The notes beneath the pieces were generated by a model. The model was not told the origin of the DNA. It did no database searches and saw only the letters and a list, made by a program, of their open reading frames with translations. The translations under genes were made by a program, and so were the position numbers. A stretch of DNA of 63,896 bases, the filler included, from Hausera hauseri (Eukaryota), in NCBI GenBank assembly GCA_046269625.1. It is 11 parts of 11 records of this genome, joined end to end, with 100 filler letters (N's around TTAATTAATTAA, not from the genome) between each part and the next. Parts side by side here need not be neighbours in the genome. Positions count along the whole stretch, not along the records: positions 43,919 to 49,275 come from JBJURY010272619.1; 10 more parts are not named here. The stretch is one strand, 5' to 3'. Each line of letters opens with the position of its first letter. The first letter of the stretch is position 1. This document shows positions 21,430 through 63,630 of this stretch, piece after piece.

Positions 21430-24041
21430 AATAATGTCCGTATGAGACTTATTTTTCTGGATCCACTGGCGTTTGTCGTCGAACGAGTCCAACGCCTTTT
21501 TTCTCGATTGGATAGTCACGAGCTCGTGGTTTTTGGTTCAAATTCGGTCCTGATCCACCATGGTGCTACAACCGGTTTTGTATGCCCCTAGGTAGTTGCT
21601 AAACGGTAGGTCGGTCTGTTTGAGGTTGATCCCTCACTGGTTTGCTTTGAGTTTTCAGTGCATATAATTTCGGCCTTAGGAAAATTGCCTCTTGATATTC
21701 GACACAGCCTTATTCTCATCCTTAAATTTCCTATTACAGAAGCGAAACAAGTTGAGCACAGCGGAACACTTATCACATTTCGACGTGTCCAACTGTTTAT
21801 TAACTATCATTGCCGGCAAGAGCTGTGTTCGCAAGTTAAAACCATGGCATTAGATGAAAAAACTGTCCTTGTCACCGGCAATAATATTAAGTTCACAAAT
21901 CAACTGTTGCCTATAAATCTACAACTCGATATAATTCAGCTCATGCACCTGTAACTTGGATAGATCAAGTACGGCCTGACCGATGGATGAGGGTCTATCT
22001 AATGCAACCGTGTCTTTATCTAGAAGAACGGCAACCAGATCATCTGCTATAATAATAATTTCTTTAAACTGTGCCTTGCTGGCATAAGTAATAAGCTTTT
22101 TAGCATTATTACACAGTCTCAGGTTTGACATATTTAGCAAATTTTCAACTGTTTTGCCCTCTTTTCAGTGTGTAGATCGATATAATCCTTAAAAACGTAT
22201 TCCTGGTCAAACTCAACAGCCAGATGTACCCTTTCAACTGTAGGGCCTAGCTATGTACAACTGTAATAGCCGATAATAAACAACATAGTGGGACTTACGC
22301 TCCTGTGTAAGCAGTAATTTCTTAACTTTCGAGCCAGGAGGACATTTATTAATTGGGGCTAGAAGCAATTGGTCCAACTTATCATGTTTATCAGCCGGAA
22401 TGCTTAAATCCACCTCAAACACTAAGCCTCGTTTTTCCCTAACACAGTCAATAAAAGGCAAATGTTCAATTAAATTATTTAATTTGACCTCATCATATAT
22501 CCATACCAAATTCGCATGGCAGAGGTTGAGATAAAGTTCAACCGTACAAATTATTTATATCTATATACAAGACACTGGTGCTATCATCAATTACAAACCT
22601 ATGCTTGTTTACAAGTCATGCCACCGCGAATACCAGATTGAAAGAAATTGTATATCTCATGGTCCTGAATAAGTTCTATTCGACACGAACTGGTTTTCCG
22701 TGCAGTTGCCCAAGATACACTAGGAATAGAGACAAAATTAACTGCTTCTAAACTATCCTGCAACTTAATTTCCTTTCTAAACCGTTCGAAAATGAAGACA
22801 TCAAGTTTCATATACACTAACATGTAGTCCAAAAGCGAGCCGCAACTATATCTTGACCAAACGAGTTGTACTTCCTGATAATCGCTATCGCTAATACCAT
22901 CATCCATTTCGGTGGTAATGTAGAAATGGACTGCAAGTCTCTGAATGATTTTGCAGCAGTGTAAGGAAATATACCTTTTCCTTTAATAACGTCGGAAGGA
23001 AAAGCCGTTTCTGTCAATGGGTAGCTATCTAAGTTCAAGGCTAATGTTTTGAGCGAAGCAGGTAAAAACTGAAGTGTCTAGAAATCTAATAGTAACAGAC
23101 TTTTTAGCCGAACATCTTACTACTGCAAACAGTCATAAATTTTTCAGTCGTCTGTGGAATAACATTTAATTCCCAACTGCTGAATTTACTCAAAGCGTGT
23201 TTTAAGATATGGCGAAGATCATATCCACGCAAATTGTGAAACATAACTGGCAAGTTGAATCTAATCTGGCGTGATAAGTTACATTTATTGCAATCAGGGC
23301 ATAAGAATCTACCCGTCACATGGCAGTGATCTTGAACAAATTCAGAACCGGTTTCATGACAGGTAACATGTTGCATTTTTAAACCTATACCATTCAACAG
23401 AAGTTAAGGGAATCATTGGTTTTATGGCATTCACGTAGAAAGGGAAAACTAGAGTTTTTACTGTGTTCTAAACAAGCTAAAAATTCGACTATACAATTTT
23501 CACCGACAAACTATTCAATAACTGTTGATGAAAGTAGTAAAAGACCGGCTGCAGCAGGCAAATGAATATGTTTAACCTTATCGTCAGGACAAAGAACAGA
23601 TTCAAAGTCGGCATATACGACAAAAGGAGGACTAATAGATTTTGACCAGTCCTTAAATTCACAAAATTTATTTTCGGGCATTTTGTACAAAGTCATGCAT
23701 TTGGAAGACGTCATGCACATTGGTAAATGCTTAGCATAAGCCGTCTGAAGCCTAAAGCCGTGTAAGCATTTTTCACACCAATGTTTACACTGAATACGGA
23801 TTTTCTTACTGTTCATATTCAACGGTCGATTTAGATTGGGAACAGCAACATAATAAAAGTTATCATTATTTTCCAAATTCATCAAGTTAACTACAGAACC
23901 ATTCGGATTTTTGCTTCTATACAAAATATCAACGAATGGATTTTTTACTAAATCTACATCAAGGTCGGCATCATCCTCATCATGGAATAAGAAGACATTT
24001 ATTGAAAGCTGCGGATTCTGCCTCTCAAATTTAGCAATTAT
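21430..24041 (-). pseudogene. polB: Protein-primed family B DNA polymerase (Polinton-type), disrupted
   Basis: VVYADFES (ExoI), DHCHVTGRF, FHNLRGYD, KGIFPY, GIRGG, YIDINNLYG, GKTVEN, IGQAVLDLSK and C-terminal KKALDSFDDKR in the expected order. Confidence 0.92.
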
Positions 24042-28586: not shown

Positions 28587-28991
28587 AACTAAACACGTCG
28601 GTTCTAATCGGTTTGACTATTCAACTTCAACTTTCGTCTCCTTTTCTGGTTTCTTATTCTTATATACTTGTGTCAGTGCGTCCGCGTCCTTCAATAAATT
28701 CACCATTCTATTTAATTCGAGCTTTCAATGATAATAACTTTCCTATGATTTTTGTCCTTATTTTGCTTTCATGACAATAATTTACGAATGCATTGAAATT
28801 TGCTCTTGATAAATTATTTCGCAATCACAAATCTACAAATTGGTTTTAACTTGAAATAATTTTTCAACCTTTTTAAAAGAAATAATTTTCTATACACAAA
28901 TTCTAATTTAAATGATTACACTAAACTATTTATACGCTTCCTTTACACTTCCTCGTCATATCGACTCCTTTTCATAACATTTCTCCTCCTT
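28587..28991 (-). repeat. Polypurine tract (28980-28991) and start of 3' LTR (28979 downward)
   Basis: Minus strand CGCCACTCAAGGAGGAGAAA|TGTTATG, similar in context to CGCCATCTGAGGAGGGAGG|TGTTG at ~60494-60472. Confidence 0.7.
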
Positions 28992-29159
28992 GAGTGGCGA
29001 TCTCAAATGTGCCACTTGCCTCAACAAAGGAGCCACGATTACTGGGCCTCTGTAATAGGTTCAATCGCCTGCGTTACCTTTTATCCGAATTTGCTTGTAT
29101 ATTTCGAGGGATTACATCGAGTTGATAGTTGGTGCTACACCGAATGTCAACTATTCGGT

Positions 29160-29721
29160 TATTCTCGCCATTGGCATAATACTTGAGCCTTGGGGCTTCG
29201 GTTCGACATACTGGACATGTTGTCTTCTCGTTCTTTAATGTCCATGTTTCCAAACAATAACGACAATATCTTTGGATACAGGAGTCTTGATCTAAGTCTG
29301 GGACACCAATTTTCGTATATTTTCATTAATTTAACAAGAAGGCCAGAGATTCTAATTTTTAATGCGTAGTCAAAAATTCGAGCTGCACATGTGATATGCG
29401 TTGAATCTCCATTGCTCACCCTTGTTGATGCTCCATGGCTGGCCGGCAATCCGGTACACGTGTACATCTGATGCGTTCCTCATCTCATAGAGACAAACTA
29501 TTCGATTCTCGTCGGTTACCCACTTCAATTCGTTGGGTATCTTACTTTCTTGATTGAATTCTACGTAGGTTTTATCTCGGATTGCTTCCATGGTCTGGCG
29601 ATAGATACTTTTGGATGGTGGGTTAAAACGTTAGGTGTTCTTGAAATAACTCGTCAATATCCTCTATCAATGTTCGGTTTGTCAGAATTGCTTTCACCTT
29701 TTTGGCCTTACTTTGTAATTT
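29160..29721 (-). pseudogene. Gypsy accessory ORF, N-terminal part (exonuclease part absent)
   Basis: DIDELFQEHL..EAIRDKTYVEFNQESKIPNELK..ENRIVCLY..GEQWRF..DYALKIRISGLLVKL matches DIDDFLKQHV..ETLRKKNYVEIKRESRKPNGLK..DNRLLKLY..GQRWKF..DDTLEFRIAELPIKL at 46160-46751. Confidence 0.75.
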
Positions 29722-29748
29722 CTGAAATAAAAGAAATAAAGTTTAAGC

Positions 29749-30420
29749 CTAAGACAGATGTTTGTTTTGAAATAAAACATTTTCTCTGTCTGATGATAGG
29801 ATAACCTGATCTGTAATTGTCAGATTAGTATGCAACGCTCGACAGTCGATCTTAACATCATAGTCTAATTTTTTCTTGACAAAGAACATGATTTTATAGT
29901 GGTGAATCAAGTATTTAATAGATATATTTTCTAATTCCCTTTCGGACATTTTACTCGAAGTAACGATATTAGTAACAGTATTCGAAACAATAGTCTTTTC
30001 TTGTAGTTACTTCGAAAGGAATTTTCCATATCCGATCTTTCGGATAATAGCTTCTTAGGTAAATACTTGGTTTGTGGAGTTGGATTTCATATATATCGAA
30101 TCGTATTTTGAATTTGCGATCAATCGGTATTTTACAACATGGATCGAGTCTTCTGTGTCCGACATAACAATAATTCTCTGACTTCTTTACTTTTATGAAC
30201 TGAGTGAAAATTTAACTGTCACTGGTTAGTGCTGTCTTGGTTTTTATCTGGATACATCTATTGCTGATGTCCTGAGAGATTCCGATTATATTATTTTTGA
30301 GTTCGTCTCCTTGTGGATAGAACTTCCAAATAAAAAATAGAAAAACATGTAGATACAGTAGAATAAAACGACTGAAACAAAAATTGAGAAGGCAAAAAAC
30401 GAGAATAATTTTTATTAAAT
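29749..30420 (-). pseudogene. Env-position membrane-protein ectodomain remnant; TM segment deleted
   Basis: Hydrophobic leader, then NIIGISQD..ENYCYVGHRRLDPCCKIP..PSIYL..MSERELENI..KLDYDVKIDCRALHTN. Colinear with 47230-47730 (NIIGISK..EYCYIAQRRLTTCFRLP..PSIYL..MSERDLENI..KLDYEIKIECRTLHTN). Confidence 0.75.
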
Positions 30421-30449
30421 TCTCGCAAATTGTCCGCCGAGGTATGCGA

Positions 30450-31217
30450 GTCTTCGGTTTAGGAGTGGGCCGGATGAGTCGTATCGTCGTCCGAACTAGA
30501 ATCCGACTGTATAGGTTCCCGTCGTATCGTCTCGAAACGTCGTCCGAACTCGAACTCAACATCCTTAATTGTCGAGTTCAATCGGCTTGGATGACGGAGA
30601 TCAACTGGCTCTCGGACGCAACCAGTGACTCGAATAAGCGGTCGACGGCAACTATCAACCGGATAAATATCGGGGTAAATACTGAAGAGTCGAAGAGTTT
30701 CCTCGTTTCTCCGTCGACGTAGAACCTTTGGAGATGACTTGCCGGTAGAGAATACTGGTCGTATTCAGGTAGTAGGCTGAGGTGCAGCACAAAACGGCTA
30801 CGCTTCAGCAACTCCCCACTGTTCGGTAGTCCGAGTAAGATAGTGCGGAGCTTGATAGTCTCGGATGCGGCGTCGTCTCCTAGGGACATCGGTATTTCTC
30901 CATCTCGACTTTTGGTCGTTTCCACCGGCGGGATGTGACTCGCCGCTCACCAAAGGCTCATCGTGTGGCCTATCGTTGGGTGGTTGGACGTTTTCTCCAG
31001 CGTGGGCTAGTCGAATGACCTTGGGCATTCGGTACTCCGGAATGGGCCGAGTTTTCTTTTCGACATCCGTTGCGTCTCGTTGGATGCGGGAGATGGTGAC
31101 ATCAGCTAGGATGGCCTTCGCACCTTCTTTGGCGATGGGTTCACCGGGTTTCAATGTCCTTGTTGCCGTCGACTGGCCCTTTCCTTGTATTTGCGGCGTT
31201 TCTGACACGTTTTTCAC
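30450..31217 (-). pseudogene. Interrupted ORF of unknown function (higher GC)
   Basis: Overlapping ORFs 30798-31217 and 30578-30925 suggest one frameshifted gene; no family recognised. Confidence 0.35.
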
Positions 31218-31599
31218 ATGAATTTATTGTTCTTGTTTTTTGAAAAAGTCCCATCTGGTTTTTAACTGTGGATTTAAACAAAACGGTTTTTTTATCCTCC
31301 AATTTTCGTTGTTGATTGCAAAATGCTGGTCACTTCGACACTTGTGATCCGCCATTTTACATTTGCTATTTTTGTGTAGGCGAAAATGAGAAATTTTAAT
31401 TTTAGTATTTCAATTTGAACAAGTCCGTGATTATTAAATTGTGTTTTCTAATTTTATTTCACGTATTGGATTTTAATTTATTTTAATTTACATGTTTATC
31501 TATTTTTGATTTTGTAAAGTGGAACCTTACACTATATAATTTATTGTCAAATATGGTACTTAAGATAGTATAATTCCTCTTAATAGACGACTCAAAACT

Positions 31600-32400
31600 A
31601 TAAGACTTTAATACAACAAAATTTTCACATGTTGTTTCTGATCTGAAACCATGCAGACACATGAGACACTGTTTACACCGTATTTGTTTTTGGATGAACT
31701 TATCATGCGCCATGTTCAACTGTCTGCCCAAATTTGCCACGACCACGTAATGAAAAATTTCCTCCTGCTCTAACAGCAACAAATTTACCAACTGTCCATT
31801 TGGGTTCCGACTTCGATAAATTATACACATAGGGATTCTTGTAAATGACTTCATCCGCGGTATTTCTTTTATTGTAATGTACTGGAAAACGTTAATTGAT
31901 GGCGTCGGATTACGCCGTTGAAAACTGGAATGGTTTTCAGTTTCATCGGCATGCAACATTCATAAAAGTGCAATTCGGAAAAATACTGCCAATACTGAAT
32001 TGAACGATTTTCATGATGTCTGTCTACTTCCTCATATTTCAATACAGCCATAATACTGTAAAAAAAACAATATTCGTCATCAGTATTTTATACATTCACT
32101 AACGCAAAAGACTGCTCTAGAGCTGCATGTGCCGGTATGAATCAACTCCTAGGCAAATAAGTTACATCACTCGACTTTGTTACAATAAAGCCGAGAGTTA
32201 CAATTTTTATAATTCGCCATGCACTACCTTTTTCGGTATAGTTGGCGATTTTATCATCGAAACTTTCGCATACATCGGAAATAAGATCGTCGGAATATGG
32301 TATACTCGATGTGACAGGTATTATTGTTTCCTGTTGCCTTGTACATTTTCAAATTCTGTTAGTGAATAATATTGCATTTTTTAGTGGTGTTGGAACCGGT
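31600..32400 (-). pseudogene. polB: Polinton pPolB N-terminal fragment, second copy
   Basis: LVNV*NTDDEYCFFYSIMAVL..IYRSRNPNGQLVNL..HYVVV.NL.R..CLMCLHGF is homologous to 23511-23924 (YRSKNPNGSVVNL..YYVAVPNLNR..CEKCLHGF). Confidence 0.8.
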
Positions 32401-33201
32401 TGTGCACATTGGACGGCACATGTTTTAAATGCATTATTGATCTCGCTGACATGTCCACTTTTATGCCCACATGTGATCTGTTTACATATACCTGACAGTA
32501 ATGGAAGGTTCATGTTGCTGTTCCTGCTGCTACTGTTGATTCTACTGTTTGCTGCTTTGTATGTATTCGTCAAGTCTTGTTGATGCTTGAGCTTTCCTGC
32601 TTGTTGAGGGCATGCTACTGCTGTTTGTTGCGTCCATGACTGTCTGTCTTTTGAAGCGCCTAAACTGATTCAAGTGGCCCTTATGGTCGTTATAAAATTG
32701 TTCATAATTGATTTGGGCAACTATCGAACAACCTGGACAAAGATAGGCCCGTTTACAATGCACCATTGCGGTGCCATAATATTGCTCCATTTTACTATAA
32801 CAATATTATATTTAAAGAAATTGTTATATATAACAATAACAATACATAACAATATTCAACACACATACCATTTGATGTTTACCGGATTACCCAACGTCTC
32901 AATCCGGTTCCAACATTTCCCCCTTCTTCGGGTAGTCCGGTCTATAGTTGTATCTCCATCTACACAATCTTTTACATACTGTAANNNNNNNNNNNNNNNN
33001 NNNNNNNNNNNNNNNNNNNNNNNNNNNNTTAATTAATTAANNNNNNNNNNNNNNNNNNNNNNNNNNNNNNNNNNNNNNNNNNNNGTAGACAGATGTTACG
33101 ATTGCGGCCATGTAATAATATCTGGTGCTCACGGAGTAATACATGCCGTCATATACAGTACAGGATTTTTCAATTTTACCAGAGATTAAATATCACCCGG
33201 T

Positions 33202-34290
33202 ATGCACCCTCAAGATCTTCAACGAGAACTTTATGTACGAAACTTTATCTACAAAACTCCGAATTTCCCACGATTTCTTTTCTTTAATGATTCGGATGAA
33301 GAGATTCCCCCTCAACTTCGGATTACGTTGGCTAGCTATAAGAGAGTCCTTTACGCATGCGACGTCGGTCGTGTAGACGAACCAAATCGATTAAGTCCCA
33401 ACTTTCATTTTGTACCTAGGAAATCAACAAAACCTCGTTTTTCTATTTTACATATTTCTCATAAACTCCAACATATTCAAGATTTAAGGCATGTTATTCA
33501 CGTTGTAAGCATTGAATGTACCAAAGCCCTTAATTGGTATTACATTGACTCATCACCTGATCACTTAATTAACACAATTAATAATGCGGAGCTCCATTTA
33601 ACTTCTGACATTCATTTACTTATCTTTCCACCACACACAACAGCCGATCTCCAGATTAACCATCTATACGAAAGCTTTAATAAAATAGAAAACAATACTC
33701 TTATTTTCCTCGGTGGTAGATCTCCACACTTCGAAACAAATAGCTATGCATTTCCGTCGCCGTTTACACAGGAATTAAAATCATACATTTACTTCTCGGC
33801 ATATAAAAAATTCCTTTTGAAGCGGGTTCCATTTTACCGATTTCACAATGGCGATACGTGTGTGCTCGTGTTGGACCCGCAAAATATTAGAGTTGTTTCT
33901 CTACGGAGGCTGTATAACAAAAAAGATTAAACGAAATATTTGGGAACCGTTTCAGACATAATATCAAACTACAATTACCGGTTAGATCTTTTAAAAGAAA
34001 CAGCAATCCTCTTAACATCGATTAACCACATCGATATACTACACTACCCGGTTTACATTATATCACCGCCATTCCACCTATACCTTTATATTAATAATAA
34101 CCTAATGAAAACCGTAAATGTCACACAAGGTATGGAGACATTACACTCATACGCTCGCATTTATAATACAACCGCCTACACTGATTTCTACCTGACTCAC
34201 AACGGTTTCATTTTAATAACCTCCCACACATCATGGTCTCATATTGCCATCTATGTATACACGTCAATCCTAGAATCCGCGGCGGTATGA
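33202..34290 (+). pseudogene. ORF0 upstream of gag, ~360 codons with one in-frame stop, unknown function
   Basis: ORFs 33202-33930 and 33940-34290 share a frame. The C-terminus (LYINNN..DFYLTHNG..YTS) recurs at 13235-13453 and, less clearly, at 53145-53400. Confidence 0.7.
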
Positions 34291-39566: not shown

Positions 39567-40037
39567 TTACTCTGATAAGACTCCGAGAACAGAATGAGTC
39601 ATAGAAAATGCAGAAACATCACGCAGATAAAAGCGTATAAAAGAGCAAGGCGTAGACCACGCCGCTGCTGAACAGATGTCACTGACCGTCATCCCACCGT
39701 GCAGCGCTGTGGAGGACGCGATGGCCCGCGTGGAATGTGCACGCAGGATTTGTGGGGGTTCTGCCCCAGTGGCTCTGTGAGCCTCTGAGATGCCCTCACA
39801 CAACCAATGAGAGAGGCGCTGAGAGGACAGAGCGCGTCCAACCGAGCTGTCTCTGTAGTGAACAAACAGGCGCTGAGAATGACGTAGAGCGGCTGTGCGA
39901 GTCACATAACATGCGAGCGCACGAACAGGGCACAATAGATGAGACGTGGCCTCTTCCTCTGACGCGTGTGGAGGAAGATGAAACCCATTTAGCGTGATAG
40001 TCCTTGATTTGAAGGAACTATTTATGCATTTGAGCAT
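39567..40037 (-). pseudogene. DIRS tyrosine recombinase, C-terminal half
   Basis: LCPVRAL..LFVHY..LSHW..RAHSTR..ICSAAAWST..F.RFY (H-x-x-R, W and catalytic Y). Confidence 0.9.
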
Positions 40038-41056
40038 GTAGGCCGGTTGGGCCTACATGCCATCATGGTCATCCAGGCAGCCGTGCGTGACAGGCAGACT
40101 GTGGATGCGGCACAGAGATTGAGGATTGCGTCTGCAGCTTTGCACAGCGAGCTTTTCGCTTCCTCAGGCAGGTCAGTCTCCTCCAGCCTTTTAGAGATGA
40201 GGAATGCGAGGAGGGCAATGTTGTTGCTGGCCGCAGCAGCCTGGACAGAGCACTGATGAACTCTGTTCGAGAGCTGCATGATGGTCTGGTCATGCCTCCC
40301 AGGTGGGACTGGTTTCTGATCCATCCTGGCGGCTTTCACCCCGAACACCTCCATGAGGCCCTGCTACAGGGGGGGCACTGATGGGAAACCCTGTTCAGTG
40401 AAACCCGCCACCTTCGTGATAGAAGCGAAAGTCGAATCTGGGGCTTTCGCTTTGGCGGGCGCTGCCACAGCCTCGTTCCAGTATGACGTCACCGCTGGAA
40501 AATGAGGCCAGATTGGGTCAGGGCACCGGGCCGACATGGAGCCGAATCTTCCCGCCAGATCATCGAATCTCGGCGGGGGAGGAGGCGGAACGGGCAGGCC
40601 CTTCGTGTCTGCCGCTTCATGGATGATGGCGGGCAGTTCCTGGAGAAGGGCGTCCAATGCTGGGAGCGTGGTGGCCGCTGACCTCGGGGGACGGAGGGGC
40701 GCAGAGCATACGTTTTGACACTCCTCGTCCAACACCACGCTCTCGAGGAGGGATGGAGCAGCGCTTCGGGTGCTGCCTCCATCCCCGTGGTCAGGTGAGC
40801 CATTCGGCTCAACCCTCGCATTAAAAACAGAGATGGCTTCGTCCAGCGGCATCTCGTCTCGCACCTGCCATTCGTCGCTTTCGATAGCCTTGAACAAGGC
40901 TGCTCGGTGCTCCCGCTCTCCGGCGGGCAGGAGGCGGCAAAGGCGACAGGGGTTGTCGAGTTCAGCATGTTGGGAACCCAAGCATCCCTCACAGATCTGG
41001 TGCTGGTCGAAGCTCCGGATAAGGGCGACTTTGCACGCTGGACAGGTTCTGGCCAT
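40022..41056 (-). pseudogene. DIRS1 Gag-like ORF1
   Basis: MARTCPACK..DQHQICEGCLGSQHAE..CRLC, the Cys/His N-terminus typical of vertebrate DIRS1 ORF1; one internal stop at ~40364. Confidence 0.8.
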
Positions 41057-41264
41057 TCTTCCTTCTTGTTTCGAGTAGGTCTTCAGTTGACGGCTGAATG
41101 ATAAAGGGAGACGATTTTCCCGTGTCGGGAGATTATAAAGACACGAGGCGGGCCCACACAGTAGGTGGGCGTGGACTATAGGTTTTTCAGTGGGCGCACT
41201 GGCGCGCAAGGGATTATCCAGTAAGCAAAGCTGTCTAAAGGGCGTAGCTCATATGAAATAGAAC

Positions 41265-43818: not shown

Positions 43819-44258
43819 NNNNNNNNNNNNNNNNNNNNNNNNNNNNNNNNNNNNNNNNNNNNTTAATTAATTAANNNNNNNNNNNNNNNNNNNNNNNNNN
43901 NNNNNNNNNNNNNNNNNNACAGGAATTATCTTGAACAATCGTGCTCGCCTGATTACAATTTTGCTTCACAGAATGAATTCGCACTTCACTCTTTTGTTTT
44001 CTTCTCCCTCTTCTGTCATTTCTATCGCTATATATACATCTATGGCTAATGAATTTTCTGAATTTGTGTGTTTTAAATTTCTTTATTTTTCGTTTCTTCG
44101 ATTTATTCGATTTACGAATTGATAATTTTCACATTTGTTGATTTTTCTCCGTTGATTAGATAACTGCATGCACTAATTATTATGTAATTGCTAATTTACA
44201 ATTATTTGCTGAATTCTACTGACTAATTTCGGTTTCGGTTTCTATTTTCACTTTACAT

Positions 44259-44690
44259 TTATACAATATCTTTTGCTTTTCTGCAACATTTCTCGTACTT
44301 TTGTAACATTTTTTCGCCCTGAACGGCATTCTCGGATGTGCCATTTGCATCAGATGAGGTGCCGCGTAAACAGTTCATTCGTCCGCGTAAGTCGGCTTCC
44401 GAATCCGATTCATCTCGTGGTGATCGCGGATCAAAGTGGTATGACGTATTGGGTTTTGGGCGCAATATTTCCACTATCTTCTTACTTTCCTCATTAGAAA
44501 AGTATATCAGTCTTGTCGCTTCGGTCCTACATACTGGGCAGGTCGTTTTCGCATTTTTCAGGGTCGACGTTTCTAAACAGTACCGGCAGTATTTATGGGT
44601 GCAATCCTCATTGTCTAATACCACAAATCCTTGATACAGATTTGCATCACAAACGGGACATTCTACATTTTTGCCTCCATCAATGTCTAC
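44259..44690 (-). CDS. C3HC4 RING finger domain at the end of the accessory region
   Basis: ECPVCDANLYQGFVVLDNEDCTHKYCRYCLETSTLKNAKTTCPVCR; all eight ligands present. Confidence 0.85.
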   Translation of the reverse strand, partial: VDIDGGKNVECPVCDANLYQGFVVLDNEDCTHKYCRYCLETSTLKNAKTTCPVCRTEATRLIYFSNEESKKIVEILRPKPNTSYHFDPRSPRDESDSEADLRGRMNCLRGTSSDANGTSENAVQGEKMLQKYEKCCRKAKDIV

Positions 44691-45677
44691 TAGGTTTTCG
44701 TCAACTTCTATTCGTTCGAATACTAGTCCTTTTTTATCTTAACATAGATATCCGCATAGCCGTTTTTGTTTGGGGTGTATAGAATATTTTTTAGGGTCAT
44801 CTGACACAGTGGCCAACCTCCATTCAACGATTTCTTGTTTATCTAAGTCGGGTATTCCGGTTTTCTTGTACTGCCTTTTAAATTTTACTCGGACTTGGGT
44901 ATCTACTGGGATGGTTAGTCTATTGGTACTATTTTTCGACTGGAATATTGGGGCTAAGTATCGGCCAATGGTTACATCGTCTCGGCCATATCCATTTCCA
45001 CTTACGATTCTTCGAGGAACAGTAGATACGTAGAATATGGCTAACTTGATATTTCCTTTACTGTAATACTCGGACATGACGAGCATTTTGGTATATTATT
45101 TTACTTGACCAAATTCTGTGACTGCAGTTTGGTTGTTTTCTTCCCAGTTCTTCCGAAGAACATTTACTTCTGTTTTGGATGGCTTTGGGCTGGTAACTGT
45201 TATTCTGGGTTCGCCGGAATTTTCGGCTTCTTGCCGTTTCGGCCTTTCTTTAGATGTGTTTACTTCATCATTCGATGTGGAGCTGCTAGTAGACGGTTTC
45301 ATGTCTCCGAGTTGGCTCTTACTGGTTTTACTCCTCTTCTTACTAATATATTGCAAGAAGGAAGTTTTCATCTTTTGTCCTCTTGGAATTTCTCCGGTAT
45401 TCGATTTTAGTCTTTTTATCTTCTCCTGAGGAGTCAATCCAATCTCGATTCGGTTTTGACTAGTCGATGGTTTTTGCTAGTTGTTGAATGTTTTGGCCGG
45501 GCTGTTGCGGACGGTTACTTGGAAATTATTGTGTCCTTGTGGTTCGATTTGTCGGTATGCCGGATACTCGCTAGACCCTTTTCGAAATTTTTGCATCAAG
45601 ATTTTTGGGTTGCTGTCAGATATTAAATTTTGTGTCGGGTTTCTGGGTTTCCATTCGTGTTCCCATCGTAGTGATGT

Positions 45678-46751
45678 CTAGATATCCCTTATTAGTTTCG
45701 CGCGTTGACTTGTTGTCACTAATTTAGGAAATCTTAATTGTTTGCCGTTCATGGCTTCGAGCATCATTTTAAACTGTGATTCTCTTGACGCTGAGGGAAG
45801 TAGACATCCTCTTTTCCTCATTAGAGTACTTTCTATCTGACTTACAACAATTGGATTGCGACTATATATTCTTGCCGAATTTCCAATTTCTCTAGCATAT
45901 CGTGCACTCTGAATCCGGTTACGACGAAACCGTATAGCCAATGACTTTTGTCTTCTCGGATTTCCAGGAAATCTTTTCCTTTTTCAAGTTGTGGTTTGGT
46001 AATTCCGGAAACATCTGGAAATGCGTCTTTCACTCTTGTTCTGGGGCGATTATTTTGTCTATGATTTCCTCTTCATTTATATTTCGGATAGACACTTCGA
46101 TCGGAGTGTACCATCTGTTATCCTTCTCTCCATAATTTAAAGGCTAAAAATCGGGTATTTTGGCCGTCGGGAACTAGTCTGAAAGATTCTCCGTTTCGTT
46201 CTATGTCGTTTTCGGAAGGTTTGTGCATAAATAATATAGGTGGTAATGGGCTCATCATCTCTGTCCGCAAGGTAAATTCAAACGTGAGCTTTATTGGAAG
46301 TTCTGCGATCCTGAATTCCAAGGTATCGTCCATAAGACTGAAGCAGCACAATTTATATGTACTAAACTTCCACCGTTGCCCTCTTCTGGTACTTCAGGAT
46401 TGTACTACGATCCTGTATTGGATTTCTCTATCTGCTACATGGATGCATAACTGCTGATGCGTTGGTTCATATGGGATCATGTCCTTCAAAGAGTATGTTC
46501 GTACATCTTTTGGATTTCACACTGCGTATAGTTTGAGTAGTCGATTGTCCTCCAAACCACATTTCAGCCCATTCGGTTTTCTGCTTTCCCGCTTGATTTC
46601 CACATAATTCTTCTTTCTTAGAGTTTCTCCGATTTGGAGGTGTAGGCTTTTAGAGTTTGGCTTTAGCACTGTTACATGTTGTTTCAGGAAATCGTCAATA
46701 TCGTTTTCGGAGCTGGTAGTTGAATTCTTCGCCTTTTCGGCCACATTTACT
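45678..46751 (-). pseudogene. Accessory ORF: unknown N-terminal domain + DEDDh-fold pseudo-exonuclease (45680-46160)
   Basis: TPIEVSIRNINEEEIIDKIIAP / VKDAFPDVSGITKPQLEKGKDFLEIRE..WLYGFVVTGFRVHDMLEKL follows the REX1/REX4 pattern (VS..N.....D..V.P..V.D....SGI...L....F.E....L.G..LVG). Confidence 0.75.
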
Positions 46752-46849
46752 CTGCGGAAGTAAAAATAAAAGTCAATCCTAAGACAGATCATCGTTTTGA
46801 AACAAAACATTTTCTCTGTCTGATGATAGAATAACCCGATCTGTAGTTG

Positions 46850-48200
46850 TCAGGTTATGCTATCAAAAAGCTCGTCTCTGTGCCCTATTTGTTTTTTATC
46901 CCTCCGTTGATTTTTGCACCGATTATCACAATTTTTGGAGACTAAGAAAATCGTCGTGATTAATATAACAAGAACGAAAATTGACAAACTGAATATGGCT
47001 ATTGTTGGTAGATTATCTGGCTTAAAAGTACTTTCTGTAGTAAGCGTTCTTGGAGTACTAGTGCCTTTATATGGCATTTCGTGTACTTTATCGTGTAGCG
47101 TTTGTATTGTCAAGATTTTAGGCCTCTTATTTCTGGCTGTAATTTGAATTACGCAATTATTTTGTGATCGTAGGGATTTGCATTCGATTTCCTAACTATT
47201 CTTCCTTAAGATTACAATTTCGTTGGTATGCAAAGTGCGACATTCAATTTTAATTTCGTAATCCAATTTTTCATCAATATAAAATACAATTGTATTACGC
47301 CGTACCAAAATTTTAACAGGTATGTTTTCCAAATCTCTCTCGGACATTTTACTCCAAGTGATAATAATAGTAGTACAAGTTGTACTGGGAATGGTAGACG
47401 GTTTTCTCGTAGTTGTTGGGAGGGAAATCTGTCACATTCCTACTTTTGGATGATATCCTATTAAATAGATACTCGGTTCGTTTGGGCAGGTATTATACAG
47501 ATCCAGTTGTAATTGGTAGCTGTATCCCAACGGCAATCTAAAGCACGTAGTGAGCCGTCGCTGTGCAATATAACAATATTCTGGGATAAAAGTTAAAGCA
47601 TTTAATGTTATGAATCGTATAGAGATTTGTCTGTCTTCCGGTAATTCTATTTTGGTTGTGGCTCAAATACGTTGGTTTTTGAAGTCTTTTGAGATTCCGA
47701 TGATGTTGAAATCTAAGAGTCTTTTGAGTGGGTCGGTGTGTCGGACTATCTTGTCCGTCTTGGTTTGGTTCGCATCGTTACGCTAATGCATTCTGATTTC
47801 AAATTCAATAATTATGTAGTCTTGGGCTCCAGGCAAATTGTAATAGAACATTTGGAACTTATATTTATAGATTCGTCCGAATTCCAAATCGCAACATTTA
47901 TGATCGGCTCCATACGAGAAATCACATATCTTCGTTCCAGAACTAGTTTGATCCACCAATATTATTTGAAATATTACGTGGTTCTTAACAGATTCGCTTG
48001 CCTTAAACCAGGCGCAAGGTTTCGGCCAGTCCATGTCGTAGACTCTAAGTGACTGCAAGTTTTGCATATCTTTACGTTTTTCCGCATATTGTTGTTTTTC
48101 GGTTAGTGTTATTCATTCTATTTTCGGTATATACGAAGCAATTAATGAGAAAGCGAGGATTACCTGTGCATAGGATATGGGTCTGGCTACTATTGTCGAT
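46850..48200 (-). pseudogene. Env-position type I membrane protein with FN3-like Cys repeats
   Basis: Signal-like VILAFSLIASYI; CDFSYGADHKCCDLEFGRIYKYKF and CYIAQRRLTTCFRLPLGYSYQLQL; Thr-rich stalk; TM IAIFSLSIFVLVILITTIFLV; basic tail. Confidence 0.7.
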
Positions 48201-48249
48201 GTCTTCTTGCTTTTCTTTGTTGGATTTATACTTTCTTTACTAGAACACA

Positions 48250-49275
48250 GGTTGTAGCGCTTGTTTTGTCTTATTTCCGTTCTAACTACTCTTTGGATGG
48301 ACAAGACCTCTTCCTTACTGTTTTTATTAATATAAACTGTAGTTGGTGTGGTCCGAATAACCTCGTACTGTCCTCTACCTGTGCGAGTCAGTTTTAGGAA
48401 TGTGCCTTTTTTCGCGACCGGGTAATGTATGTAGACCCAATTCCGTATTCTAGATCATGTGGTTTGGCTTTCTTATCATACTGCTCCTTAAATTGTTCTT
48501 GATACTCTTTGGATAATTCTTTGGCTATTTCCCAACACTTGCGTAGTCTCATCTGTAACACTTCCACAAAATTTTGTTTTAAATCCTCTGTGTTCACTGT
48601 GTACGGTATCATTTCTAAATCTGTGGGCAGCACAGCTTCCCTGCCATTCATCATGAAAAACGGGGTGAATCCTGTTGTTGGATGTGGTGCAGTGTTTATG
48701 GCGAATTGTGTGCCTTCTACAAATTCGTCACAATCCTTTTGGCTTTCGCCACTACGGTTGACAAGATTCGCACCACTGTCGCATTCATTCGTTCAACATT
48801 TCCGTTACATTAAGGGTGATAGGCTGTCGTGGTTAGTCGTTCGATTTCGAATATTTTGGTAATTTTTTCGAAAAGTTTACTCGTAAAGTTTCTTCCTTGG
48901 TCTGTTAAAATTTGTTCAGGAGGTCCATATTTACGGATAATTTTCCTCACTACTGCTTCTTCCAGAGTTTCGGCTTTTTGGTCCATTAATGCTATCCGTT
49001 TGACGAAATGAGTTAGACGATCTACACACGTTAGAATGTACTTGTTATTTTTGTGAGTGGTAGGTAATGGTCCTACAATATCCATGGACATTGCTTGCAT
49101 TGGTCTATCCGGTACGTCTATTGGCTTAAGTTTGACAATACAGTTTTTCACTTTTCTTTGTTTCGTTGCGCAAACTTCGCGCACATTTACCTAATTTTTC
49201 ATGTCGATGTATATACTTCACAAATAATATTTATTTAGTATTTTCTCTAAGGTTTTCTTTCATGACATGTGTCCG
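48250..49275 (-). pseudogene. pol: Gypsy integrase (zinc-finger end, DDE core, GPY/F-like region)
   Basis: GHMS..CAT, SMDIVGPLP, VDRLT, LTDQGRNFTS, TTAYHP, TGFTPFFMMNGREAVLPTD, GQYEV. Confidence 0.93.
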
Positions 49276-56376: not shown

Positions 56377-57466
56377 GTCTACTGTGGCACATGTCACATC
56401 AATGAAATCAGAATGAATGACGGACACAGCAATTCGATGATCGATATTGTTATTGTTCAATGAACCACAATTTGTGTTGTATGACGTCTCCATCGTATTT
56501 GTTAATTCTTGGATGACTTTCATTTTGTCTGACTCTTTTTTGGATACTGGTTGCTCCTGTTCTTCTTCATCACTCTTAGATAATTTGATCGACAATTTCC
56601 GACGAAGAAAGAGTGGCAAATGAACAACAGCGGTATCTGTGATTATACGTAAGAATAATCGATGATGAACTGTGTCGAGCGTGATAGGATTGTCAACAAG
56701 CAAATTATGAAATTGTTTTAAAATTCAGAACTTTGCCGAACTTTTAGATATTCTAACTTTTGAAAAGAAGATTTATTTAAAAAAGTGAGATTTCATTACG
56801 ACATAAAATTAAAAGCATTATCCGACTATGAGGAAAAGTACTGATGACAATTTATTCGAATCTATTTACCAAAAGTCATCATCATTAAGATGCAGTTATT
56901 TTACATTATCTGACGTCACCATCAAAGACATTATTGCCGATTATGATAACTGCCTCAGTTATTACGTACAGAATTTCATCACAATTACCGATTTATCACG
57001 ACTATTCTGCTGTATTATATGTCAAATTAACCAACTGAAAAATTCCAATAAAGCACATTTATTACTCGACAAAACTGTTACATTCATGCACCAGAATCAA
57101 CTACAGATAGATTGCATTTCTGCAGTCTCTGCTAAAAGTGTCGTCTATAACAAATGTCCGCTTGTTGACAATCCTATCACACTTGACACAGTTCATCATC
57201 GATTATTCCTACGAATAATCACAGATACCGCTGTTGTTCATTTGCCACTCTTTCTTCGTCGGAAATTGTTGATCAAATTATCTAAGAGGAGCAACCAGTA
57301 TCCAAAAGAGTCAGACAAAATGAAAGTCATCTAAGAATTAACAAATACGATGGAGACGTCATGCAACACAAATTGTGGTTCATTGAATTATAAATATATC
57401 GATCATCGAATTGCTGTGGCCGTAATTCAATCTGATGTCATTGATATGACATGTGCCACAGAAGAC
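56377..57466. repeat. Inverted duplication, arms 56377-56701 and 57160-57466
   Basis: LVDNPITLDTVHHRLFLRIITDTAVVHLPLFLRRKL..IDHRIAV..TCAT is encoded on both strands. Confidence 0.92.
56828..57466 (+). pseudogene. Unknown ORF, frameshifted and fused to mariner
   Basis: 168-aa ORF plus continuation 57350 onward; no family recognised. Confidence 0.4.
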
Positions 57467-58567
57467 TTATACCATAAGGTGGAATACAGAAGTGTCATCA
57501 AATTTCTCGTGCTAAAAGATTTGAACAATCAAGAAATAATCAAAGAATTAAAGGAAGTGTATAAAAATGAATGTTCAGCTATTAGAAATATCTACAAGTG
57601 GATTTCTAACTTCAAACATGGTGTCCAATCAGTGTTTGCTGATCAGAGTCCAGGTCGTCCTGACGAAATTTGTGCTGAAAAAGATGAGTTATTGGAAAAA
57701 GTTATCAAATCAGAGAGACGAATTACAATAATAGAGCTCAACAAGGCTAAATGTTAGCAAGGGTACTCTCAATAACATGATGAAGCGTTTAGGCATACGG
57801 AAATTATCATCCAGATTTGTTTTCCACTTTTTAACTAACGAGATGTGCCAAAATCGTCTACAATGCTGTCAAACCAACCTGACCAAATTCGAACATGAAG
57901 GTGATCAATTTTTGACAAGCATAGTGACAGAGGATAAAACACCATTGTCACTTTATGTGCCAGAAAATAAGAGAGTCAAGTGAATGGAAATGTGCAGGTG
58001 AGACTGACAGCCGAAAGTCGAGGTCTTCTACAAGCCACAGAAAGGTCTTAATGTTGACTATATTTTGGAACAACAAAGGGATTCTGCTTATGGATTTTAC
58101 TGATTCAGCAACAAAAATTAATTCCGATTATTGCATAAATCTATTGCAAGAAGTCCACAAGAAACAAAGGTAGCCTTACAACTTGCAGCTGTATTTGCTT
58201 CAAGATAATGCTCAAATTCACACGAGTTTTCACCCTCCTTCCTCATCTTCCATATAGCCCCGATCTCACCCCTAGCGACTTTTTTCTCTCTATAATAATT
58301 TGAAAAAATATCTCAGAGGAAAAGATTTCCACTCAAAAGCTGATCTGAAACAAGAAGTTCAAGGTTTTTTCCCAATCCCAGTCACCACAATTCTTCCAAA
58401 GTGCCTTCAATCTACAGGCGATCTGCTGGAAAAAGTGCGTCGAAGCAGAAGGTTCATATATAGAAAAATAAGAACCTTCATGTCATGTCTAGCATTTTAT
58501 TAAAATATGGTTTTGATATTCTTACTTTAGACAGGTTTATGCACGCATTTAATGGGCTCACTACGTA
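57467..58567 (+). mobile_element. Mariner (DD34D) transposase pseudogene with right end
   Basis: EYRSVIKFL, PGRP, LGIRKLSSRFV.H.L, IVTEDKT, KVLMLTIFW, QDNA..H, YSPDLTPSDF, KKYLRGKDF; terminates ..CTACG|TA. Confidence 0.92.
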
Positions 58568-59893: not shown

Positions 59894-60487
59894 TTGGAAG
59901 ACATCGCCATCCGGGTCCAACGCTACCTGACGGCAGCCCGTTTAATTCTTAAATAACTTAGAGCCAAGTACAACCTTAGTGAGTACAAGGAATTACAGGC
60001 CCACAGCCTACTAGACACCGACATATAGATATAAGATAATGCTAGGTAGGATTCTAGTATCTGTCCCACCCACATATACCCAAGTTATTTGTTCACCCAT
60101 TAATTTGTATAAAGTGATAATTAAAAGTCTCTCCCGAATTGAATTAGTGGGAACTGAACATATATACCATTTCGAGAATAGGTAATTTTAGAAGGAAAAT
60201 AAAACAAAATTCCAATATACATAGTAAAATACGAAAGAATTTAAAAATTACACAAGAGTAGACTAAACAGTATTAAATTAATTCTAGTTATTTATCGTCA
60301 TATCGTCATAACTGCCATTTATCGCACAAGTTTATTCGTTGATACTGATTTATCACACAAGTTTATTCGTTGATTAGAATTCTAGATCATTTGTAACACT
60401 AATTAAGATGATCAACACCATTTGTAATATAACATTAAGATGACCAACACGATTCAACAATCAACACGATTCAACACCTCCCTCCTC
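59894..60487 (-). repeat. PPT (60477-60487) and 3' LTR (60476 downward; distal end not defined)
   Basis: Minus strand CTGAGGACAGCGCCATCTGAGGAGGGAGG|TGTTGAATCG, a typical Gypsy TGAGGAC..PPT|TG junction. Confidence 0.8.
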
Positions 60488-60520
60488 AGATGGCGCTGTC
60501 CTCAGTGCCAGAGGGTGTCT

Positions 60521-61826
60521 TTAGGGTGCCGTTAGAATATTGGTAATTCGCTGAATGAATGTTGAGCCAGGACCCTTTATCCTTGATTTTATTATTAAGA
60601 GTAATAGTTTCTTTTTTGGTTTAGTTCTCTTTATGGGTTTCTTTGTTAAGTCGATTACGGTTGGTTCTGGTAAACTGTCATTGAACGTGTTCGACACTGA
60701 TAATAAAGGAGCTTGATTCATAATTTCGTCGGTAAGAATTAATCGATTTGGTGAGTCTTGGATGTCCATTGGCGAAGCGGTTGATCCTGTTAATGCGGAT
60801 TCTTCTGTTGTTATGGGAAATTCTTTTATACTTTTATAGATTTTCAACATAGTTGCGGCTTTTTCGTTTGTCCGTTGGGGATATTCGCTGTTGTTATATT
60901 TCACTAAGATATGGGCTTGTGTTAGGTGCTTTTGTGTATTTATTTCTTTGTAATAAAGGAGATCTCTAACTCCCAGTACAGCATTAATATTGAATAGGTA
61001 GAAATGCTGGTTATTTTCATAAACATTCATTCTTACTATCACTTTTTCCGATTAGCTGTTGTCGGATTTTTTTTCAGCATCATATTTATCAACTTGACCG
61101 ATTATATCAGCTTCCTTTAAACCGGTAATCCGGCAGTTATAGTTGTCGATGCGGTTTCGGGGACAGATAAACGGATTATACAAGATATTTCCATCTAGGT
61201 CTATGATAGTTATTACGACGGGTGTCTGCTCTTTTGATCGAATAGGCTTCATAAGATAGGCGCTATTTATGGCCATAATAATAATTTCTTCCTTTTGTAT
61301 CTGCGGTGACCTGGCAAATGATACACTCTGTTCCAATCGTAATCTATCGGGTAGTGCTATCGGGTAATTAGCAGGTTTAGGATATTCCAAATGAGGGAAT
61401 GTTTCCCTTCGAATCACTTCTACATAAATCACTGGTGTAGGTCTACTATGAGGCCGTAGTATTATCGCAGCATTTTTATAAAAGCGTTGGTCCAGACGGA
61501 CTGTCGTAAAAGAAACGAGTTCTACTGTGTCGATCATCCCGTTTAGATGAGTTCGACTTTTTATTTGGACGGTTTCTTTAACAGCTTATATATAGACTGA
61601 TGTAGTTTGGTTTGAGAGGTCTATGATGTCAGGCAATTTGTGGAGGCAACTGGTAACTAAATATTTAGACCACTTCGTTGAGTGACTAGGTGGCCTTTTA
61701 AGTTATTTGGAATAAAGGAACATTTTCAATAAAATATGTAATCTTTTTGAACGGTTGCATTAAGATTAGTAATGATGTTGAAATAAAATGATTTCTGTCT
61801 ATCGGCTATTTCGGATCCTTCTTGGT
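60521..61826 (-). pseudogene. Accessory ORF with DEDDh-fold pseudo-exonuclease and VIDLT/basic tail
   Basis: ITIIDLDGNILYNPFICPRNRIDNYNCRITGLKEADI..KIRQQLIGK/VIV..GVRDL..NEKAATMLKIYK; tail EPTVIDLTKKPIKRTKPKKK. Confidence 0.78.
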
Positions 61827-61914: not shown

Positions 61915-63260
61915 TTATAAATATTTTGTGTAGGTCGCGAGGAGTTTGGCGGCCTTATCTTTTATATGTGTGCAGATATATAATGCAACGTTTGTTAACG
62001 GTTGAATTTGCCGTTTAGAATTTGATAGCTTTTCAGCCTGGGAAGACGCATCCATATCATTAGTAAAATCGTTTTGGGAACCCTCTCTTAATAATTTTAA
62101 TTGTTGTGTTAATTTCTGGGTCTTGCGCATTTTACGTCTTACTTTGGAACGATAAATTGTTATCGGTAATAATATGGTTATTGAAACTAAAGGGATACCT
62201 AATGTGATAAACAACCAGAAATATTTGTCAGAAGTTTTTTTTGAATTTGCATGGTAGTTGTTTTTATAGCTTCATTCGTAACAATTGTCCGTAATTTCAA
62301 CGTCTTTTTCATTTTTGTAATTTCTTGTAAAAACTGTCCGTCTTCGTCTAGCTCTGTTATAATGATCCTATAATTAGTATCAGCTTTTAAGATAATACAA
62401 GCCGATGTTGGTTCGTCTTGGGTCAACACTCCTTCACTAACCATTCTTTTGTGAAGAAAACATTCAAATTTTATATTGGTATTTTTTAAATTTGATATGG
62501 TGGTAGTAAGAGAGTGTGGTGTTAATTGTATAGTTATATCTAATTTCTTAATAATTTTTATAGCTTCGGTCGGCTTCTCTATCGGTAATTTTGTGATAGA
62601 AATCCTTGGAATGATTATAGTTACTGGTGTGGCCCATTATATTATTTCTGCTCCATCTGGCTATGTTGACCACGCATAAACATTAGTCGTTGTTTGGTAA
62701 TAAATTTGGAATGATCTATTAAATGAAAAGGACAACAAAGATGTGGTTTTTGGTAATGTGGTTTGCATTTTATAATATCGGTTTTGTTTCGGATCCAACA
62801 TTCTATGGTGTGATATTTAGTTATTGGAATTTCTGTCTCAGCCGTAACGCAAAGTCAATTTCTCATGACTTTTGTATAAAATGAAACAAGAAAATATAGT
62901 TGGTGGAAGTAATGAGTCGTACCGGGATATGAAAAATGTTTTCTATGTGACTGACCTCTTCTTCCAGTTGCGTATTGGATCCTATGGGATACTCTGAACG
63001 TAAGCCCACAACACGTATGAGTTGAATGGTTATAATGCAAGTCACAATATTCCGGTGTTGCTTTGTACACAAAAGGTATTTTCGATATGAATATATGTAT
63101 ATATTCACCGTACGTTAGATTTCGATTGGCCGTAATTTTTATGCACGGGTATTGTCCAACCTGGACGGCTTTATATTGTACGGTAGGACTCTGAGCCGAT
63201 ACACAGGTTTCTAAGCTTAGCATCATAAGTGTTGCTACTAGAAATAGGTTAGGATTTTTA
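61915..63260 (-). pseudogene. Env-position type I membrane protein, in frame with integrase
   Basis: LFLVATLMMLSLETCVSA|QSP signal; YPCIKI..EYCDLHYNHSTHTCCGLTF; CIILKADTNYRIII (FN3 Tyr-corner-like); TM WLFITLGIPLVSITILLPITIY followed by RSKVRRK. Confidence 0.72.
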
Positions 63261-63269
63261 TTTCTTATC

Positions 63270-63630
63270 TTTGATTCCATCGGCGCGGGCTTCCATCTGT
63301 TTACATGTACTTTTAATGGGTCCATTTTATTTCTTTTACTTTTATTCAAATAGATTTTAGGTTCATCCACTTTTTGGACCATATATAGACCTTTATATGG
63401 TCTATCCAATTTTGGCGTTTTACCCTTTTTACTTGAAGGCGTATGTAACATAACCTTGTCTCCAGGTTTAAAACCATGAGATTTCGCTCTTTCAATATAT
63501 CTATATTTATACTCCTTTTTACATATTTTTATATGTCGAAAAGCCAGGTTCCATACTTGTCCAAATTTTTCTTCTATTAATTTTTTATATTCCATATCCT
63601 TTAGATGAGACACTGGAATTTTGAATTCTA
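63270..63630 (-). pseudogene. pol: Gypsy integrase C-terminal GPY/F region
   Basis: FKPGDKVML..KLDRPYKGLYMV..KVHVNRWKP. Confidence 0.85.

Follow-up and report, generated by a model that had tools for sequence, protein, structure and literature searches.

Several mobile elements are known that carry cargo of the kind considered here. The bdelloid rotifer LTR retrotransposons Juno and Vesta encode a DEDDy exonuclease as their ORF3, and the part of that report cited here also describes Maelstrom and EXD1 as inactive DEDD derivatives that retain RNA binding (PMC5408684). For the planarian element Burro, the cited section of PMC6431247 lists as cargo an AIR1 'RING Zn-finger' motif, together with MATH, BIR and SUMO-like sequences. 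With regard to expression, SIRE1, Tca2 and MuLV have frames that are separated by in-frame stops, and the TMV read-through consensus, CAR-YYA, was reported to work in yeast and human cells (PMC2194720, in part). The TMV site itself is given as UAG CAA UUA CAG AUU (PMC13517186, in part), and a conserved 3' RNA structure is described as typical of read-through cassettes (PMC3159437, in part). Exonuclease cargo, ubiquitin-pathway cargo and read-through are each already known in retrotransposons; their combination was not found in the literature searched. The locus analyzed here is a defunct copy of an LTR retrotransposon of the Gypsy type with two 3' accessory genes, ORF3 and ORF4, the second of which ends in a RING finger.

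The window, a stretch of 63,896 nucleotides from Hausera hauseri (assembly GCA_046269625.1), consists of 11 pieces joined by N44-TTAATTAATTAA-N44 linkers (9453-9552 and nine similar spacers). Since the spacers are artificial, adjacency was counted only within one piece, and adjacency across spacers was rejected. The RING finger under study lies in piece 8 (43919-49275, JBJURY010272619.1), which starts inside the integrase and ends inside an LTR, and the minus-strand order in this piece is integrase, in-frame ORF3 and, last, a long frame, now decayed, with the RING at its end. The features of piece 8 are as follows, with P0004 denoting an intact relative that is described below.

48250-49190, minus strand: integrase, comprising the core and the C-terminal tail and interrupted by stops and frameshifts; the start of the piece falls within pol.
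46850-48249, minus strand: ORF3, which occupies the env position, shares its frame with the integrase tail and is predicted to encode a type I membrane protein; five premature stops interrupt it.
46770-46858, minus strand: ORF3/ORF4 junction, a candidate read-through cassette with UGA, a CAR-YYA context and a predicted, conserved stem-loop.
46752-46770, minus strand: splice-acceptor-like pyrimidine tract and CAG, with a counterpart at the corresponding site of piece 5 (29722) and none above threshold in piece 11.
46166-46849, minus strand: N-terminal domain of ORF4, with two premature stops, colinear with amino acids 5 to 240 of P0004.
45660-46165, minus strand: DEDDh-like pseudo-exonuclease, with frameshifts near 46140, 46035 and 45850; its 3' limit is estimated.
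45096-45659, minus strand: charged, Ser/Lys-rich and poorly conserved linker, with a gapped alignment to P0004 and very low pLDDT.
44664-45095, minus strand: conserved pre-RING domain of ~140 amino acids with one premature stop, aligning with P0004 amino acids ~600 to 745.
44529-44660, minus strand: C3HC4 RING finger, identified by a complete ligand set, a Pfam match and the P0004 model.
44309-44320, minus strand: degenerate polypurine tract (PPT), translated as the end of ORF4; the homologous PPT in piece 5 is intact.
43919-44308, minus strand: start of the inferred 3' LTR, with TG at 44308; the piece ends before the far end of the LTR.

The other pieces hold fragments that, going by their motifs, we take to resemble Gypsy, DIRS, Polinton and mariner elements, a mixture suggestive of an invertebrate genome. 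Positions 1-9452 are a degenerate ~68-bp tandem satellite array that fills its whole piece. An ORF upstream of the piece 6 gag (33190-33930, plus strand) matches DUF2152 (E 5.9e-11) and is a fragment of a host gene that lies within or next to a Gypsy element. The GC-rich piece at 39567-41248 (minus strand), presumably DIRS-like by its motifs, has a Cys-rich gag-like ORF and a tyrosine-recombinase-like ORF, and its zinc finger is the top background match to the RING profile. Two fragments that are 44% alike (22237-24041 in piece 3 and 31483-31959 in piece 5, both minus strand) resemble Polinton/Maverick DNA polymerase B regions, and a transposase N terminus inside a repeated stretch of piece 10 (57335-57754, plus strand) is one that we take to be mariner-like.

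The piece 8 integrase has a Pfam rve match at 48813-49190 (E 8.3e-16) and is 34% identical to the Gypsy integrase of piece 6 (E 5e-15), and a variant of the GPY/F-like motif was seen by eye in its tail; GPY/F is a hallmark of the Gypsy/Metaviridae-type integrase tail (PMC2836005, in part). Both a retroviral-type integrase with a GPY/F-type tail and a PPT followed by a TG-starting LTR, as expected of Gypsy/Metaviridae, are present. The PPT and the TGTTA that follows it (44320-44308) lie 221 nt downstream of the RING, which therefore is inside the element. A better-preserved PPT, again followed by TGTTA, is found at the homologous place in piece 5 (28991-28980), and the similarity between pieces 8 and 5 runs ~50 nt into the LTR. 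In all, a PPT abutting an LTR that starts with TG was seen in pieces 8, 5 and 11, the one in piece 8 being degenerate, and P0004 ends at the translated PPT motif. An earlier note on this DNA had placed the RING at the end of the Gypsy cassette, and its position upstream of the PPT and LTR in two families bears this out. The same note had named a location outside the element, or in a flanking host gene, as the finding that would overturn its reading; a flanking host gene was rejected because ORF4 runs into the PPT/LTR and P0004 ends at the same motif.

The RING ligands of piece 8 are arranged as C-x2-C-x15-C-x-H-x2-C-x2-C-x12-C-x2-C (44660-44529, minus strand; spacing 2/15/1/2/2/12/2), which fits the C3HC4 consensus C-x2-C-x(9-39)-C-x(1-3)-H-x(2-3)-C-x2-C-x(4-48)-C-x2-C. 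This is the sole strict RING pattern found outside the satellite at 1-9452, and when the 53,552 bases outside the satellite were simulated 40 times with an order-3 Markov model, no strict match arose. The pattern reported earlier at ~44520-44665 was right as to the complete C3HC4 set but had x14 where the spacing is x15. The description of the RING as intact holds for its zinc ligands only, as the gene around it, ORF4, is a decayed frame of ~870 codons with six premature stops and three frameshifts and with the RING at its end, and the RING has Ser at a position of the central helix where P0004 and the piece 5 copy have Trp. The match to Pfam zf-C3HC4_2 (E 4.3e-6) scores 26.9 bits against a cut-off of 27, and the RING thus falls just under the Pfam cut-offs (20 versus 21 and 26.9 versus 27). 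The 159-codon open stretch that holds the RING has no ATG before it and therefore is not a gene by itself.

When the ORF4 frame was translated with stops as X and searched against 1.84 billion representatives, seven matches were obtained at E<=0.001. Six of these center on the RING (E 2e-6 to 7e-4), and only the seventh, P0004, extends past a RING-type match (E 8.5e-93, 520 residues, 40% identity). P0004 is an unbroken ORF of 870 amino acids, the one intact relative found; it is colinear with 46795-44304 of piece 8 and, as predicted, begins at a Met in the ORF3/ORF4 junction region. The N-terminal domain, exonuclease fold, linker, pre-RING domain and RING are one ORF in P0004, and no cellular family with this architecture was found among the 1.84 billion representatives. 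Whether the exonuclease fold and the RING form one ORF, a point that the earlier note had raised, is answered by this intact protein, which holds both, and the RING does lie downstream of the exonuclease fold in the same decayed gene of piece 8, as had been proposed.

The RING of P0004 passes the Pfam zf-C3HC4 cut-off of 21 with 30.8 bits. Its model (amino acids 741 to 814, pLDDT ~89) superposes on E3 RINGs with a best Z of 6.6 (rmsd 1.9, 55 aligned), a modest value, as is any Z below 8, and the structural matches listed for it are RING/U-box proteins. Aligned to RLIM, it keeps the loop-1 hydrophobic residue, the helix Trp, the Pro and the following Arg, which are E2-contact positions of RINGs; the Trp, Pro and Arg positions are also retained in the RING half of piece 5. 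In active relatives the RING is probably a real E2-binding ubiquitin ligase.

The exonuclease region of P0004 (~amino acids 240 to 345) matches DnaQ (8h18, E 1.4e-4) and the PolC exonuclease (2p1j, E 4.6e-4), and a profile made from an eight-row family alignment matches ISG20L2 (3.4e-7), SDN1 (2.7e-5) and ISG20 (4.1e-5). Against DnaQ, the ExoI D-x-E of P0004 reads A-x-N, a reading that recurs in piece 11, and the ExoII D reads M; the alignments stop before ExoIII, where the model has low confidence. Because the ExoI D-x-E and the ExoII D are replaced, the fold is very probably catalytically dead: homology to the DnaQ/ISG20 fold is present and the ExoI/ExoII acids are absent, which makes it a pseudo-enzyme and not an active DEDDh member. 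The pseudo-nuclease of the earlier note is in this way confirmed as a fold lacking the catalytic acidic residues of ExoI and ExoII.

For the remaining parts of ORF4, the N-terminal domain, part of which is retained in piece 5 at 29621-29373, gave no Pfam match, and the pre-RING domain gave no PDB sequence match at E<=10. A single-sequence AlphaFold model had a pLDDT of 31, and an alignment-based model (mean pLDDT 41) was confident at the RING only, so the Foldseek results are uninformative. Word-indexed protein searches matched none of 768 candidates for amino acids 297 to 574 of P0001 and none of 464 for the piece 11 protein, and P0004 matched itself alone (1 of 7186); these blanks say little, because the P0001 search missed P0004. 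The ESM Atlas gave no usable match for whole P0004, and no phage match was found. The C-terminal ORF4 part of piece 8 gave a blank in pairwise comparison with the exonucleases of pieces 2 and 11 because the exonuclease core is in other frames.

Three further regions of the window bear on these findings.

28975-29830, minus strand: piece 5 relative, which keeps the junction cassette, part of the N-terminal domain, the second half of the RING and the PPT, with the exonuclease deleted.
60477-61585, minus strand: piece 11 distant relative, with integrase tail, ORF3 with a transmembrane (TM) segment, pseudo-exonuclease and PPT/LTR and with no RING.
9558-10552, minus strand: piece 2 ORF that weakly resembles an exonuclease, with what may be a RING remnant, on the strand opposite to gag-pol.

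Piece 5 (28587-32984) represents a second family in the window; its copy is internally deleted and also keeps part of ORF3. Its RING half at 29295-29197 (Pfam E 1e-4; 45 bits) is the true matching remnant, which the earlier note had overlooked. Over the 45 codons of this half, pieces 8 and 5 are 87/80/36% identical at codon positions 1/2/3, and as pN is 0.16 and pS 0.87, the RING was kept as a protein during divergence. The pooled pN/pS for the two pieces is 0.26 (bootstrap 0.17 to 0.37), and for the 102 codons to the C terminus dN/dS is 0.15, with synonymous sites near saturation. These substitution patterns indicate purifying selection on the RING while the families of pieces 8 and 5 diverged. 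At least four internal deletions, some bordered by short repeats, fall between 28975 and 30300 (minus strand) in piece 5. They took half the RING together with the exonuclease and the TM segment and spared the junction cassette and the PPT; the copy is possibly a non-autonomous derivative. Near its start (32929, minus strand), piece 5 has another PPT, with TGTT after it, which likely marks the 3' LTR of a different element.

The relative in piece 11 resembles piece 8 in its integrase tail (E 4e-6) and ORF3 (E 0.008), and its ORF4 resembles P0004 (E 0.036) and has an ISG20 match of E 0.26 in the exonuclease. A canonical PPT and LTR follow almost directly after the end of this exonuclease ORF, with no RING in between, so the RING is an add-on module. 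The co-occurrence of RING and exonuclease fold across copies is therefore partial: P0004 and piece 8 have both, but piece 11 is without the RING and piece 5 without the exonuclease.

Piece 2 (9553-15657), in which the earlier note had reconstructed a matching RING remnant at 9576-9662, belongs to a different Gypsy lineage. Its gag-pol, on the strand opposite to the exonuclease-like ORF, resembles those of pieces 6 and 9 and is one that we take, by its gag knuckle, to be CsRN1-like. No tblastn match at E<0.5 was found between 9553-13300 and pieces 5, 6, 8, 9, 10 and 11, and piece 2 was rejected as a copy of the piece 8 element on this ground and on that of its lineage. The exonuclease-like ORF has a weak pairwise match to the piece 11 protein (E 0.006); neither a leave-one-out profile (2.9 bits) nor the PDB yields a significant match to it. 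At 9576-9662, the reconstruction itself supplies two of the five ligand positions, the piece ends before the point where the last Cys pair would lie and no Pfam match was obtained in either frame tested. The C-x15-C-x-H-x2-C motif is equaled by 5 of 3000 local null sequences, and its RING score of 7.9 bits stands within the 6.3 to 8.4 bits of its neighbors in the window-wide background. A degenerate RING here is possible; as a remnant of the piece 8 gene, the site fails, being weakly RING-like and part of an unrelated Gypsy element. Long ORFs upstream of the gag in piece 2 (9752-13266, both strands), which include 12136-13266 plus (376 codons) and 10100-10684 minus, have no Pfam match and make up an accessory region of this second Gypsy lineage.

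ORF3 of piece 8 is predicted from hydropathy to have a signal-like segment (48193-48137), an ectodomain of ~390 amino acids, a TM segment (46996-46940) and a tail of ~30 amino acids. Homologous stretches are found in piece 5 and, weakly, in piece 11, and no fusogen family was matched in Pfam. The ectodomains of pieces 8 (47400-48100, minus strand) and 11 (62858-63283, minus strand) have in common a Cys motif, C-D-x-x-Y...H-x-C-C-x-L-x-F, which is apparently repeated within piece 8; the region has no Pfam support, and by eye it is reminiscent of fibronectin type III repeats.

The stop codon of ORF3, overlooked in the earlier note, is a leaky-type UGA at 46852-46850, after which ORF4 continues in the same frame. 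It is followed by CAA-CUA-CAG-AU in piece 8 and by CAA-UUA-CAG-AU in piece 5, the latter identical to the TMV site over the first 11 nt after the stop, and since the UGA is common to the two pieces, it was rejected as a mere decay stop. In both pieces the arrangement is that of type I read-through, namely, a stop, CAR-YYA and an in-frame downstream ORF. The CAR-YYA context was noticed post hoc; outside the satellite there are 5880 stop triplets, and 22 of them, the two junctions among these, are followed by it. Over the ~85 nt after the UGA, 23, 25 and 25 of 28 codons are identical between pieces 8 and 5 at positions 1, 2 and 3, respectively, and this third-position identity compares with 30 to 41% in coding parts. 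Third positions that are conserved at the junction and diverged in coding parts argue for an overlapping cis-element. The changes within the conserved block, seven non-synonymous versus two synonymous, show an excess that fits any cis-element. The junction folds of pieces 8 and 5 have z scores of -3.0 and -3.3 (1 of 200 shuffles as good in each), and all 26 consensus pairs are kept in these two sequences, where four pairs have changed on one side and none on both. In piece 5 a deletion junction lies directly next to the 5' arm of hairpin 1, no Rfam family matches the structure, and in piece 11 ORF3 ends with a double TAA and no CAR-YYA site was found.

We consider it somewhat probable that ORF4 is made at least in part by read-through of the ORF3 UGA, which would yield a membrane-anchored pseudo-nuclease and RING on the cytoplasmic side. 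As the best explanation overall we propose, with about an even chance of its being right, that active relatives of this dead Gypsy-type copy make an ORF3-ORF4 pseudo-nuclease-RING fusion. The fusion would be a minor product, perhaps with soluble ORF4 alongside. As a type I membrane protein made by read-through, it would expose its pseudo-nuclease and RING to the cytoplasm and hence to E2-ubiquitin. The dead exonuclease may bind RNA or RNP ends and so aim the ligase, a step for and against which the chances seem evenly balanced. The ligase would then ubiquitinate proteins near element RNA, at membranes where element RNPs assemble. Its substrates could be host silencing or restriction factors, in the sense of counter-defense, or element structural proteins, in the sense of trafficking and release. 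A fuller proposal, tentative and carrying less than an even chance, is that an invertebrate Gypsy-type lineage encodes a receptor-like ligase by TMV-type read-through, with ectodomain, TM segment, RNA-binding pseudo-exonuclease and RING, made in a low fixed ratio to the plain membrane protein and targeting host RNA-silencing factors or particle release.

The same protein, with the same role, might instead be a soluble, stand-alone ORF4 made from a spliced message (acceptor 46752) or an internally initiated one. The ATG 14 codons after the UGA would then be the start, the conserved block would act in splicing, as a promoter or in re-initiation, and read-through, if it occurs, would be incidental. 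This is a serious rival, because both a conserved ATG and a site resembling an acceptor are found no more than ~100 nt from the UGA: the ATG is in the junction block, the pyrimidine tract and CAG occur at the homologous place in pieces 8 and 5 and the predicted start of P0004 is a Met in the junction region. Moreover, retrotransposon ORF3s are described as typically arising from spliced messages (PMC5408684, in part), and the Tca2 stop-plus-structure junction gave no read-through in baker's yeast (PMC2194720, in part). However, acceptor-like sites are common, with a background of 0.45 per kb, conservation in the ~75 nt after the stop exceeds that of the acceptor region, and this route does not account for a conserved in-frame stop being followed at once by the exact TMV-type context. 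We regard a soluble product as the rather unlikely route, although the two routes are not mutually exclusive.

Two other explanations concern the domains themselves. It is improbable, in our estimation, that the RING is a zinc-binding scaffold or dimerization module with a matrix-like or adaptor function and that ORF4 is a structural RNP/membrane adaptor. Non-catalytic RINGs exist, the RING of the arenavirus Z protein has a matrix-like or adaptor role and the partner nuclease domain is itself a pseudo-enzyme; nevertheless, P0004 and piece 5 keep the residues aligned with the RLIM E2-contact positions, and the best structural matches are E3 RINGs. Far less probable still is passive capture, in which the RING and exonuclease would be bits of host sequence picked up by the element, or parts of a neighboring host gene, and would do nothing for it. 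Cellular genes often contain RING and DEDDh domains, every copy in the window is broken and a single intact relative was found, but this explanation is largely refuted by an ORF that meets the PPT/LTR start in two families, by the end of P0004 at the same motif, by amino acids that are conserved while synonymous sites are saturated and by an architecture seen in no cellular family among the 1.84 billion representatives.

The family is at present described by one intact protein, P0004, and two or three decayed relatives, with the piece 8 copy dead. P0004 is a natural intact protein that is usable for assays. The RING-pseudo-exonuclease is a concrete candidate for a means by which LTR retrotransposons counter host silencing and for a role of their 3' accessory ORFs, and the locus offers a hint that Gypsy-type elements may bring their own protein-tagging enzyme. 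If read-through is true, it would be an unusual recoding event, from membrane protein to cytoplasmic enzyme, and would provide retrotransposons with a virus-like membrane E3.

Viral RING E3s include ICP0 and baculovirus IE2, and MEX3, Roquin and RNF43/ZNRF3 are cellular RNA-binding or membrane RING ligases; all of these are plausible functional analogues of ORF4. The comparison with ICP0 and IE2 made in the earlier note stands as an analogy at the level of the RING fold; no homology outside the RING was found between ORF4 and ICP0/IE2, MEX3, Roquin or RNF43/ZNRF3, in a region where the model has low confidence. The MEX3C and ZNRF3 RINGs are among the PDB matches of the ORF4 RING, with which they have the C3HC4/RING fold in common. 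No report of a pseudo-DEDDh-RING ORF4, or of read-through into an ORF4 from a membrane ORF3, was found in the literature, which was covered largely by title and abstract and outside Repbase Reports and most subscription journals, and the literature searched held no LTR-retrotransposon E3 of the membrane-anchored pseudo-nuclease-RING kind. Troyka was rejected as a counterpart, having no envelope and, in the cited part of its description, no mention of an exonuclease or RING (PMC12440569).

Like the piece 8 element, Juno and Vesta are Gypsy-like and carry, downstream of pol, an accessory gene with an exonuclease fold (PMC5408684, in part). Their ORF3, however, is RNase D-like DEDDy with an intact DEED, stands alone without a TM segment and has no RING reported in the cited part of that paper (PMC5408684), whereas the piece 8 ORF4 is DnaQ/ISG20-like, has lost the ExoI/II acids, is fused to a RING and follows a TM-containing ORF3. 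With DEDDh-type matches, lost acids and several domains, ORF4 does not belong to the Juno/Vesta DEDDy ORF3s. The planarian Burro/GYPSM1 is likewise Gypsy-like, with ubiquitin-pathway cargo and an env homologue, but its cargo lies inside an ORF1 polyprotein of ~5000 amino acids, and the cited part of its description names no exonuclease and no 3' ORF4 (PMC6431247). Ginger1, Mutator and Helitron are mobile elements that also carry ubiquitin/SUMO-pathway enzymes, the OTU/Ulp1 proteases; these are DNA transposons, however, and their enzymes remove rather than add ubiquitin (PMC2836005, in part). Finally, the TMV-like read-through sites of SIRE1 (pol/env) and MuLV (gag/pol) have in common with the piece 8 junction the in-frame stop and CAR-YYA (PMC2194720, PMC3159437 and PMC13517186, each in part); the conserved 3' region of the piece 8 site has a predicted structure that may correspond to theirs. 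The piece 8 site differs from them in its UGA in place of UAG and in that it would join a membrane protein to a cytoplasmic accessory ORF instead of gag to pol or pol to env.
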